Positions 60,867 to 64,000 of a DNA stretch of 64,000 nt are shown here, piece after piece. Source of the DNA: Acidobacteriota bacterium (GTDB taxonomy: Bacteria; Acidobacteriota; CAIWXX01); contig JBFMAF010000015.1 in NCBI GenBank assembly GCA_040755995.1, positions 50,696 to 114,695 of the forward strand, written 5' to 3'. Under the pieces are notes generated by a model. The model saw only the letters and a program-made list of their open reading frames with translations, was not told the DNA's origin and did no database searches. The stretch's first letter is position 1, and every line of letters starts with the position of its first letter. The translations under genes were made by a program, and so were the position numbers.

Positions 60867-61109
60867 TTGCAGGAAGGCGTGGTGCCCTTTCCCAGAACGC
60901 ACGATCTCGAGGAGTTGCTGAAGCTGGCCGTCGGATTGGAGCCCGCATGGGCAAACATGCAAACGGCCGTGGCCCCGCTGACCGACTACGCAGTCGACTA
61001 CCGTTATCCGGGTCTCAGCGCCACCGAGGCGGAGGCACGCGATGCCGTTCAGAAGTGTGAGGCATGCCGAGGTGTTTTCCGCCACTCGCCAGGCCTCGCG
61101 CCCCAGTAG
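60867..61109 (+). pseudogene. HEPN-domain fragment
   Basis: FPRTHDL..L and LTDYAVDYRYPG motifs; N-terminal half missing or frameshifted; no adjacent nucleotidyltransferase. Confidence 0.65.
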
Positions 61110-61252: not shown

Positions 61253-63163
61253 CTAACCTCCTACCCTCACCCCCACGCCGCCGTAGATCCGGCGCAGCGG
61301 CATCGGGTAGCCCGGCTCGGTGACGTAGTTCTTGTTGAAGAGGTTGTCTGCGCGCAGAAAGAGGCGCAGGACCGAGATGGTCCTGTCGACGCTGGCTCCC
61401 GCCACGAAGTACCCTGGCGCCTTGAGGGTGCCCGACGACGATGCAATGGTGCACTCTGAGGTGGCCAGTCCCCAGACGGCGAACGAGAAGCCTCTACCCG
61501 GCTTGCCGTTCAGCATGAAGTTGAACTGGTGACTGGGAACCAGGTCGAGTGGGAGGTCCTTGTCCTGGTTCCTCGCGTTCAAGTAGGTGTAGTTGGCGGA
61601 GAGGTCGAGCCACCGGATCAGCTTGCCCGCCTCCAGCTCGAACCCGCTGATCCGCGCTCTATCGATGTTCTCGTAGTATTTTGACCCGTCCGGGCGCCTG
61701 ACCGAGTTGATCAGGTCTTTGAATGAGTTGTAGAAGACGGCGCTGGCGAGCCTCACCTGCTTGTCATAAGCGAAGCCGACCTCGATGTCGGTGCCGATCT
61801 CGTCCTGCAGGTCGGGATTGCCGTCACTGGGGCTATAGAGCTCCTTCATCGTCGCAAACCTGGTCTTGCGCGACACCGAGAAGTGGATATCGGTGTATTC
61901 CACGGGATTGTACTTGACGCCGGCCAGTGGGCTGAAGGAGGTCGTGTTGTCACCGGTCATCTTGTCGAGGTAGTCGACTCCGGCGCCCGCGACCAGCTTC
62001 CATTTCTCGCCGATCCCGATGTGGTCCTCGACGCCGAACGAGACGGTGCGCTGATCATAGTGGTCCACCGGTTCATCCACGTCGTCCTGGGTGTTGGCCT
62101 GATCGGACCGGAAGCCGAAGCTGAACTTGAGGTCGTTGTGCTCGACCAGGGGCATCGAACCGATGACGGTGGCTCCGGCCGATTCGTTCTTGAAGGTCGA
62201 CTCCCAATCCAGCGTCTTCATCTCGGCCGTCTTGTAGGAATCCAGGACGTTGTAGTAACGCACGTAGTACGCGCGGACCTTCAGCTGGCCGTCCTCGCGG
62301 AAGCCGAACGTGCCGCCTGCGTTGAAGTTGAGCCGATTCCAGTCCTTGAAGTACCAGTACCGAGGCCTGTAGTACTGAGTCGCCCACGGGATACCGTAAT
62401 CGGACGTGTAGTACGACGCCTCCGCCATTAGCTCGCTCGTCTGTCCCGGGTAGTAAAGGAACTTGCCCGAGATGTTCGTGCGGTCGTAGTCGGAGTTGGC
62501 GCGGAGCTGCTCAGTGCCGCTCGCGTCCTCGTAGGGGAAGCCGTCGGACTTGTCGAAGGAGGCCGTGCCGGTGAACACCATGTCCTCGTGCACGAGCGAA
62601 CCGGCGCCACCGGCGAAATACGTGCTGCGCTCGGCGCCCATCAGCGTGAATGAGCCGTGCGTGGCAGTAGGCCGCTTGGTGATGATGTCGACGACACCTC
62701 CGAGCGCGTTCGGACCGTATAGCACCGACGAAGCGCCCTTGACAATCCGTATGTCCTCGATCTCGTCGGTCATGATCGTCTTGACGTCAAAGCTGCCGAA
62801 GTACGGTTCGCTGATCGGAATGCCGTCGTACATCAGCGAAAGCTTGCGGCTGTCGAGCCCGCGCACCTTCAGCCCGAACTCGTTCTTGGTGCCCACGGAT
62901 ACGAACGTGCCCGTGCTCATCGACAGGGGTTGCGTCAGGTCGGTTGCGTGCATCGCTTCGATGGTCTCGCGCTTGACCTGGCACGTCGAGGAAATAGGCC
63001 GGTCCTTGGGCGCTTCGCCCACGACCACGATCTCCTCGGTGACGGTGGTTCTCGGTTCGGCTTTCGACTGATCCTCCTGATCCTGCTCGGAAGCCCATCC
63101 AATCGATACGAATGCGAACGCCGCAATGAAAGGGAAGAAAACATAAGGCTGGCCGTGTCTCAT
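61253..63163 (-). CDS. TonB-dependent outer-membrane receptor
   Basis: Signal peptide, TonB-box-like EEIVVV, plug motif IRIVKGASSVLYGPNALGGVVDIITK, NPDL..E, NLFNKNY. Confidence 0.93.
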   Translation of the reverse strand: MRHGQPYVFFPFIAAFAFVSIGWASEQDQEDQSKAEPRTTVTEEIVVVGEAPKDRPISSTCQVKRETIEAMHATDLTQPLSMSTGTFVSVGTKNEFGLKVRGLDSRKLSLMYDGIPISEPYFGSFDVKTIMTDEIEDIRIVKGASSVLYGPNALGGVVDIITKRPTATHGSFTLMGAERSTYFAGGAGSLVHEDMVFTGTASFDKSDGFPYEDASGTEQLRANSDYDRTNISGKFLYYPGQTSELMAEASYYTSDYGIPWATQYYRPRYWYFKDWNRLNFNAGGTFGFREDGQLKVRAYYVRYYNVLDSYKTAEMKTLDWESTFKNESAGATVIGSMPLVEHNDLKFSFGFRSDQANTQDDVDEPVDHYDQRTVSFGVEDHIGIGEKWKLVAGAGVDYLDKMTGDNTTSFSPLAGVKYNPVEYTDIHFSVSRKTRFATMKELYSPSDGNPDLQDEIGTDIEVGFAYDKQVRLASAVFYNSFKDLINSVRRPDGSKYYENIDRARISGFELEAGKLIRWLDLSANYTYLNARNQDKDLPLDLVPSHQFNFMLNGKPGRGFSFAVWGLATSECTIASSSGTLKAPGYFVAGASVDRTISVLRLFLRADNLFNKNYVTEPGYPMPLRRIYGGVGVRVGG

Positions 63164-63167
63164 CGCA

Positions 63168-63262
63168 TCTCCTTTCCAAACACGGGAGGCGAGTCCGTTT
63201 CCAGGCTCACCCTATCGGCCGGCGTGCATGGCGTTGCGCTGTAGCCTCGCCGGCTCGGAGCG
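63168..63262 (-). promoter_or_regulatory. Moco RNA motif (molybdenum/tungsten-cofactor riboswitch candidate), P3-less variant
   Basis: Minus strand reads CTCC-GA-GCCGGCG..CGCCGGC-CGAT-AGGGTGAGCCTG-GAAA-CGGACTCGCCT-CCCGTGTTTGGAAAGGAG. The 3' block closely matches the E. coli moaA leader as I recall it (GCCTCCCGTATTTGGAAAGG). The SD forms the P1 3' strand. Confidence 0.82.
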
Positions 63263-63269
63263 TCCCGGC

Positions 63270-63300
63270 ATTCTACTCGAAGGCCGGGTCAGCCTGTCAA
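63270..63300 (-). promoter_or_regulatory. Putative sigma70 promoter for the riboswitch/TonB receptor transcript
   Basis: TTGACA-N19-TAGAAT. The spacer is long, but the predicted +1 falls at the riboswitch 5' end. Confidence 0.45.
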
Positions 63301-63360: not shown

Positions 63361-63768
63361 ATGGAAGAACAGAGAAGAAGAAACATGGCAGGCGTCGCGA
63401 GAGGGTTTGCCTCCCGCCTTCGAAAGGCGCGCACGGATCGAAGCCTATCTGAGAAGCAGTTGGCTGACATGGTCGGTACGCACGTTATGCAGATCTCTCG
63501 GTATGAGCGCGGAGAGGTCTTGCCAGCGTTCGAGATGGCTTTGACGCTTGCGGAGGTACTCCACATTTCAGCCGACGTTCTGCTTCTTGGCCGGGAAGAA
63601 GCGAAGTCCCAGACAATCCCCGCTATCAATGACCTACGCCTCTATGAGCGATTCCTGGAAGCTGAGAAACTCGAACGTCAGGATCGCCAGGCCATCATCC
63701 TCCTCATCGACCGCGTCATCACCCACCGCTCTGTCGAAGCGCAGATCGACAAGCATCGCCGCGCCTGA
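63361..63768 (+). CDS. XRE-family HTH transcriptional regulator
   Basis: RLRKAR..RSLS..QLA..VG....QISRYERG..LP....LAEVL..SAD.LL; start could be 63385. Confidence 0.85.
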   Translation: MEEQRRRNMAGVARGFASRLRKARTDRSLSEKQLADMVGTHVMQISRYERGEVLPAFEMALTLAEVLHISADVLLLGREEAKSQTIPAINDLRLYERFLEAEKLERQDRQAIILLIDRVITHRSVEAQIDKHRRA

Positions 63769-63887: not shown

Positions 63888-64000
63888 GTGCGTCCAGCGA
63901 AGGCTGGCGCGTTCTGCGGGAGACAGTCCCGCTGGGGTAGAAGCCAGAAGCCCCATAGCTTGGATGGCAGGGAGGAGGGAGACCAATGACCTGAAGCCCA
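63888..64000 (+). ncRNA. Probable 5' end (domain I) of a group II intron, IIC-like; truncated by the window edge
   Basis: Begins GTGCG; stems CCAGC/GCTGG, GCGGGA/TCCCGC and TGGGG/CCCCA; GAAGCCAGAAG, TAGCTT, GGAGAC and CTGAAG occur in the order typical of IIC domain I. Confidence 0.6.

Follow-up and report, generated by a model that had tools for sequence, protein, structure and literature searches.

Cofactor riboswitches that stand directly before genes for TonB-dependent outer-membrane receptors are a known arrangement: cobalamin riboswitches precede btuB, and in Caldithrix abyssi a thiamine pyrophosphate (TPP) riboswitch precedes a thiamine receptor (PMC5317091). Riboswitches of the molybdenum cofactor (Moco) family have been described in other company. 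In the accounts of the E. coli moaA leader (PMC2408646) and of E. limosum (PMC11725836), the targets described are moa, mod and tup genes, molybdenum (Mo) or tungsten (W) enzymes and, in E. limosum, two iron-annotated ABC systems plus focA; members without the stem P3, also called Tuco riboswitches, are the tungsten-associated type. Here, we consider a window of 64,000 nucleotides from an Acidobacteriota genome (contig JBFMAF010000015.1, positions 50,696 to 114,695), toward the end of which a P3-less Moco riboswitch lies directly before the gene for a TonB-dependent receptor. We lean toward a reading in which the riboswitch gates translation of the receptor and the receptor brings metal-loaded molybdopterin (MPT) through the outer membrane, as W-MPT, Mo-MPT or something closely derived from them.

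The RNA is a P3-less member of the known Moco/tungsten cofactor (Wco) riboswitch family, and its stem P1 includes the ribosome-binding site of the receptor gene. A first-pass annotation, made from the sequence alone, had proposed this, and the covariance-model check (cmscan, Rfam) agrees: on the reverse strand, window positions 63272-63152 match RF01055 at 70.7 bits against a gathering cut-off of 36 (E 4.8e-15), over the full model (positions 1-135), with a short junction instead in the P3 columns. The stems fall where they had been placed, all on the reverse strand. The 5' strand of P1, CUCC (63260-63257), pairs with the GGAG of the Shine-Dalgarno (SD) sequence AAGGAG (63169..63174), which is the 3' strand of P1; P2 occupies 63254-63248 and 63224-63218; the 5-nt junction CGAUA (63217-63213) takes the place of P3; P4 (63212-63206 and 63193-63187) carries a GAAA loop at its tip, and P5 covers 63186-63175. 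The receptor ATG follows at 63163, 5 nt past the SD, which is the translational-OFF layout that the annotation had described. An SD inside P1 and a GAAA loop on P4 are shared with the described Moco RNAs, and the absence of P3 places the element in the Tuco-type subclass. By analogy with E. coli moaA (PMC2408646), the RNA is predicted to shut off receptor translation when the cofactor is plentiful.

Thermodynamic folding of the leader gave no clear ON/OFF pair. In the ligand-free fold P1 is unformed (z -1.84, with 8 of 200 shuffles equally stable), and the energies are -51.7 kcal/mol for the free leader, -49.5 with P1 forced and -48.2 with the SD held open, so that P1 costs about 2 kcal/mol. 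Because P1 is absent from this fold, the evidence for the leader structure comes from the family model and from covariation in the homologues: in an alignment fitted to the RNA model, 18 of 27 pairs show two-sided changes, a number as high in 0 of 500 shuffles, and P1 is paired in 98% of cells across 60 aligned RNA matches. A likely sigma-70-type promoter (63270..63300, reverse strand) can be read from the sequence at the 5' end of the leader, with a -35 box TTGACA at 63300-63295, a -10 box TAGAAT at 63275-63270 and a predicted +1 near 63263. Both boxes of the promoter that had been claimed are present, and their 19-nt spacing is atypical. A promoter scanner that allows spacers of 16-18 nt reported no site in the leader because the boxes lie outside that range; with a loose regular expression, a promoter-like pattern is found at the same -10 position in 45 of 56 homologous leaders.

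The gene itself (61253..63163, reverse strand) is an intact open reading frame for a 636-residue protein with a predicted signal peptide, a plug at about residues 59-157 and a beta-barrel. Plug (PF07715) and barrel (PF00593) both score above cut-off, and the host genome has 13 TonB_C matches, as befits a TonB-dependent receptor. The AlphaFold model (pLDDT 88.5) gives fold matches of the BtuB/OprC/PirA type, with solved structures at about 15-21% identity. Residues K93, E95, W270, W275, R277, R297, N305, D308, W320 and K433 of the receptor are conserved. Membership in the BtuB family was considered and rejected, since TIGR01779 scores 119 against a cut-off of 600, a second model scores 93 against 836, and an Rfam scan of the 64-kb window found no cobalamin RNA. 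Siderophore, heme, copper and pyrroloquinoline quinone (PQQ) receptors were rejected likewise, from NCBIfam models below cut-off and with no Fur box search made; of the 30 NCBIfam receptor models matched (B12, siderophore, heme, copper, PQQ), the 25 shown are all below cut-off. The homologues reach none of these cut-offs either, which sustains the view that this is not a B12 or siderophore receptor. Database labels of the homologues, mostly from Aminicenantes and Acidobacteriota where titled, read "iron complex" or "cobalamin" receptor. The receptor is best described as a member of an unnamed Mo/W-linked subfamily of TonB receptors.

The pairing of RNA and receptor is family-wide. A genome scan with the single receptor protein gave nothing, and relatives were gathered by an alignment-based search; the locus set is the best 80 of 584 confirmed receptor relatives in genomes. 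The RNA model was built from 19 P3-less RNAs, the query's included, and it returned the same 9 matches as Rfam in 20 loci given to both. Six of the 80 loci have too little upstream sequence to be assessed; in 56 of the other 74 the RNA lies directly before the receptor, so that homologues share the motif, a check that the annotation had proposed, and P3 is absent from 54 of the 56 by model alignment. Two RNAs (L059:7780-7920 and L060:7720-7912) carry an insertion at the P3 position in a clade that is otherwise P3-less. Thirteen of the 18 RNA-less loci form one clade, and another (L066) is the second gene of a run of RNA, pruA and receptor. Even five homologues at 27-30% identity are found under the RNA. 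The expected Mo/W link is also borne out: AOR, mobB, tup/wtp or sulfite-oxidase-fold genes neighbor the receptor homologues in 44 of the 80 loci. A quick-method tree of 76 loci, the query and two further host receptors (79 rows in all, with loci below 480 aa left out) placed the query in no starred clade; its branch is long, and one outgroup has an extreme branch.

In 151 genomes drawn independently from the phylum, with 20 candidates scored per genome, there are at least 41 RNA matches above cut-off. In this draw, the RNA is directly upstream of 11 of 11 strong receptor genes and of none of the 4 weaker ones. Among these matches, with names taken from BLAST, family matches or reading of the translation, the first gene after the RNA is a receptor in 12 cases (one truncated), moaA in 12, pruA in 7, moaC in 2 and a sulfite-oxidase-fold gene in 2; moeA, wtpA, tupA, a ccsA-like pair, a xanthine-oxidase-type gene and an Fe-S enzyme occur once each.

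What points to the cofactor as ligand is the distribution of the receptor in genomes that lack cofactor synthesis. A sample of 111 genomes of one class (Aminicenantia, inferred from homologue titles), mostly drafts that are 85-100% complete and overlapping with the 80 loci, holds the receptor in 59, moaC in 83 and AOR in 100. Producer status was scored from moaA, moaC and moeA, with MoaD and MoaE outside the scoring. Of the 28 genomes without moaC, 5 were classed as producers, having both moaA and moeA, while 6 make up family f9 and 17 are non-producers. The receptor is present in 15 of the 17 genomes without moaA, moaC and moeA compared to 44 of 88 producers (Fisher p 0.003, a value that overstates the contrast because the genomes are related), and family f64 shows a clean split of receptor versus cofactor synthesis, 6 against 6. 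All 15 non-producing carriers keep pterin-dependent enzymes (AOR in 12, xanthine-oxidase family in 3), and 13 of the 15 keep a MobA/MocA-like transferase. None of the 15 has a TupA match, and ModA/WtpA-family proteins are limited to one strong and two weak hits. The RNA precedes the receptor in 11 of them, and one of the carriers is a single-contig genome (G228). In the six genomes of family f9, AOR, moaC, moeA, the MobA-like protein and the receptor are all absent (moaA was tested in one).

According to the established pathway (PMC2408646), free metal is unusable without MoeA and MPT synthesis. With synthesis lost up to metal insertion and the later steps kept, metal-loaded pterin is what would be expected from outside, and this points to cofactor import. 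The first-pass annotation had left three ligands in play, namely the oxyanion, a metallophore complex and the cofactor; the evidence suggests a narrowing toward metal-loaded pterin for the close receptor family, and the ligand of the window receptor is not settled because its host, which has tupABC, is a cofactor producer. The association with tungsten users, also claimed there, is upheld in the host, which combines tupABC and AORs with an RNA lacking P3. Tungsten specificity is weaker than implied because three non-producing carriers show only xanthine-oxidase-family enzymes.

Two modules exist around the receptor: one with an S-component-like protein in non-producers and one with a pterin-fold protein in producers. 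The partner in the first is a membrane protein of 207 aa that matches no Pfam family and by predicted structure resembles the S-component of an energy-coupling factor (ECF) transporter; its Atlas structure neighbors are Trep_Strep, ABC_cobalt and TrpP, and in one neighboring Atlas cluster an S-component-like domain is fused to Oxidored_molyb. The gene occurs in 15 of 17 non-producers compared to 17 of 88 producers, and in 13 of the 15 non-producing carriers, counts obtained with a profile seeded partly from the same non-producer genomes on which it was scored. For example, in G030, G045 and G073 (L129, L130 and L131) the receptor is followed by the S-component-like gene while moaA, moaC, moeA, TupA and the Moco RNA are absent; in the latter two (L130, L131), a ferredoxin-like gene and AOR come next. 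In the RNA-less clade, three loci (L013, L014 and L016) have the receptor, then an S-component-like gene, then a set for a Tat-exported enzyme of the xanthine-oxidase family.

The second partner, found in 29 of the 80 loci, is secreted, with a signal peptide and no conserved Cys, and its roughly 340 residues form two halves of the sulfite-oxidase/PruR fold (Z 10-11.5). It is present in 43 of the 111 class genomes and in 0 of the 15 non-producing carriers. In one genome (G173) a single run comprises RNA, receptor, sulfite-oxidase-fold gene, tupA, tupB and tupC. Two versions from the host's family (L113:2255-3376 and L147:4004-5182) contain an inserted CxxCH, and the CxxCH-bearing partner of G029 is preceded by a CcsA-like gene (weak PF01578 hit). 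Because of the CxxCH and the CcsA-like gene, this version may be a c-type heme protein, possibly redox-active.

Beyond the close family, a profile search shows a continuum of receptor relatives. On the family profile, a sister group at 24-30% identity reaches a median of 248 bits, whereas none of the host's other receptors exceeds 136. Of 80 metagenome loci of this sister group, 41 have modE, modA, modB, modD or tupA no more than 5 kb away, a figure that comes without a background control. The sister group reaches cultured Proteobacteria, namely P. aeruginosa, E. coli and, in an unrelated context, Azospirillum. In P. aeruginosa (L247:5977-9497), the sister receptor and a small molybdopterin-oxidoreductase-like gene are convergent with moaA and the nar operon. 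In E. coli (L248:1416-7842), an ABC "iron" transporter, a SAM methyltransferase, modD and the sister receptor stand together, resembling the Haemophilus molABC-modD cluster. The RNA was matched once in the 80 sister loci, and not directly upstream, with a P3-less model that may miss forms with P3. The Mo linkage of the sister family strengthens the link to Mo/W and also keeps the metal-chelate reading alive.

The host of the window has a genome of 7.7 Mb, 99.8% complete, with three Moco RNAs, all without P3: the one in the window, one before a truncated receptor paralogue on C9 and one before pruA on C35. Its contig C1 groups moaA, moaC, a MOSC/Mog-like gene, tupABC and two moeA genes. With five AOR-family proteins and the tupABC cluster it has a tungsten metabolism, and there are three xanthine-oxidase-family hits and five Molybdopterin-domain matches as well. 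The idea of the host as a cofactor auxotroph was rejected, given moaA, moaC, moeA and tupABC.

In the scheme that we propose, a shortage of cofactor would leave the SD free and the receptor would be made; energized by TonB, it would import W- or Mo-pterin, and binding of the cofactor to the RNA would close P1 and shut receptor translation off again. In non-producers, the ECF S-component-like protein could move the cofactor over the inner membrane, and MobA/MocA-type enzymes would finish it. In producers, the host included, the receptor may be a route that spares synthesis, with the secreted Cys-less tandem protein of the sulfite-oxidase/PruR fold holding the pterin in the periplasm or passing metal to TupABC. 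OFF-switching by the cofactor (by analogy with E. coli moaA), TonB-energized uptake and the identity of the ligand are what we infer here.

Several observations weigh against cofactor import. The host can make the cofactor itself, having moaA, moaC, moeA copies and a Mog-like gene, and it has tupABC as well; the search of its genome for an S-component-like gene found none, its receptor gene is alone at the locus with no partner genes adjoining, and its sulfite-oxidase-fold gene sits behind the truncated paralogue on C9. The closest homologues by identity (47-50%) form the clade in which the RNA is absent from 13 of 13 assessable loci. Among non-producers, the RNA is missing at 4 of the 15 receptor loci, and two genomes (G235 and G248, 85% and 93% complete) have no receptor, while half of the producers (44/88) keep theirs. 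Synthesis and metal transport can be removed together by one deletion or assembly gap because the genes often share an operon. Free Moco is chemically unstable (PMC2408646), and the sister family's place beside oxyanion transporters fits uptake of a metal chelate.

Several of these points suit a different ligand, a tungstate or molybdate complex of a metallophore (catechol or other) whose metal is released in the periplasm to TupABC, WtpABC or ModABC, with the riboswitch turning the receptor off at cofactor sufficiency. MPT synthesis and TupA are present in the host and in most carriers, the single run in G173 joins RNA and receptor to tupABC, the sister subfamily lies near mod or tupA genes and adjoins modD in E. 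coli and moaA/nar in P. aeruginosa, and Moco RNAs are known before oxyanion transporters (PMC2408646). We regard metal import as possible and rather unlikely, since it leaves unexplained the receptor in 15 genomes without moaA, moaC, moeA and TupA, 11 of them with the RNA; the query receptor also has no conserved Cys/His set of metal ligands, and the neighborhood figure for mod genes has no background rate for arbitrary receptors. It seems improbable that the receptor imports something co-regulated with tungsten metabolism that has no relation to the cofactor, be it iron to supply the Fe-S-rich AORs or a substrate derived from an amino acid. Such a ligand would agree with the E. limosum P3-less RNAs before two ABC systems annotated as iron transporters (PMC11725836), with the pruA genes under the same RNA in 7 genomes, whose product has no pterin and which in several loci lie beside the receptor, and with the "iron complex" or "cobalamin" labels. 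Those labels are generic, however, and no NCBIfam receptor model reaches cut-off; moreover, the partner proteins have pterin-binding folds, the receptor is enriched where cofactor synthesis is absent, and the distant sister family is linked to Mo via a different regulator, ModE.

That the host cassette is a stray, poorly expressed remnant with no current role is more improbable still. Its surroundings look mobile: a HEPN fragment (60867-61109), an HTH_3 regulator (63361-63768) that recurs on C36, C43 and C28, and, where the window ends, part of a group II intron (D1-D4; 63914-64000), all on the forward strand, flank it. The truncated paralogue on C9, the partial gene copy on C26 and the 19-nt promoter spacer could be taken the same way. 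Set against these, the reading frame is intact and scores 909 bits on the family profile with invariant residues kept, the G+C content of the receptor gene is host-like (0.605 compared to 0.627), and the RNA scores twice the Rfam cut-off. Import of a metal-loaded pterin thus stays the reading that we favor.

The other host loci deserve mention. On C9 (G000:C9:9720-11378), the gene after the Moco RNA is a receptor paralogue cut short at about 105 residues, and the sulfite-oxidase-fold gene comes next; close by, the opposite strand has a short moaA-like fragment (C9:9294-9530). In the related genome G029 this run is intact, with two cytochrome c assembly-like genes in between. At G000:C26:15086-15674, a stretch of 589 nt repeats the 3' part of the receptor gene with 89.6% identity; this copy overlaps the start of an extracytoplasmic function sigma factor-like gene on the other strand and looks like a duplication remnant. 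On C35 (G000:C35:198356-200103), the P3-less Moco RNA stands directly before pruA (TIGR01236 above cut-off), the arrangement found in seven genomes of the phylum sample (G000, G017, G035, G050, G077, G101 and G125) and also in L066. The pruA product, L-glutamate semialdehyde dehydrogenase, is an enzyme without a pterin, and several loci have its gene beside that of the receptor. The enzyme may act as an NAD-dependent substitute that is switched on when a tungsten aldehyde oxidoreductase is short of cofactor. MetE under B12 control offers the analogy.

Moco is generally taken to be made within each bacterial cell. Peng et al. (2018) listed 305 bacteria with molybdoenzymes and an incomplete synthesis pathway, for which incomplete assemblies are a possible cause (PMC6147048), and uptake of protein-bound Moco has been reported in C. 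elegans. One could picture a trade in finished Moco/Wco among bacteria, with receptor, S-component-like protein and periplasmic pterin-holding protein as a dedicated import pathway, anaerobic lineages that drop moaA through moeA while keeping AOR or xanthine-oxidase-family enzymes, and a wider clade of Mo/W TonB receptors that is ModE-linked in Proteobacteria and riboswitch-controlled in Acidobacteriota. This larger picture may well be right and may equally be wrong. The receptor and its partner genes make bacterial cofactor salvage directly testable, and such salvage could explain "orphan" molybdoenzymes and the resistance of some anaerobes to cultivation. The system would also offer a way to supply engineered tungsten enzymes with Wco. 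Even if the metal is what is imported, this would be a TonB-dependent Mo/W route, of which no description was found in the literature searched.

In the open literature (subscription journals, RegPrecise and supplements lying outside the scope), no paper was found on a TonB receptor under a Moco RNA or on bacterial Moco import, and neither "TonB" nor "outer membrane" occurs in the main text of PMC2408646, its supplements being outside that scope. The ModABC, TupABC, WtpABC and MolABC systems also supply Mo/W, and their genes occur beside those of the receptor family and of its sister group, but they move free oxyanion over the inner membrane, and the parts of PMC6147048 and PMC3928620 used here describe no TonB receptor for them; the only outer-membrane route mentioned is that of ModA secreted by the type VI secretion system of P. 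aeruginosa, with IcmP (PMC11734730). PruR, a periplasmic pterin-binding protein (PMC13259868; PDB 7kp2, 7rkb), shares the secreted Cys-less sulfite-oxidase fold with the producers' partner (Z 11.1 and 10.9). It is a signaling protein of about 170 aa that is said likely not to fit Moco (PMC13259868), whereas the partner is a tandem of about 340 aa. The cobalamin and TPP systems have the same layout, and BtuB is the best fold match of the receptor (TM 0.77, 18% identity), but their RNAs belong to other families, the TIGR01779 score falls short as given above, and no BtuFCD-like genes were seen beside the window receptor. PqqU, a TonB-dependent PQQ importer (bioRxiv 10.1101/2024.06.04.597491), follows the same logic, in that a cofactor is imported by bacteria that have the enzymes without the synthesis; its cofactor and family are different, and NF041535 scores the window receptor at 42 against a cut-off of 1200. 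New here are the Moco RNA before pruA in seven genomes and the Mo-linked sister family that reaches cultured Proteobacteria. The RNA, then, comes from a known family, and the receptor would work like BtuB or PqqU while being a member of neither.

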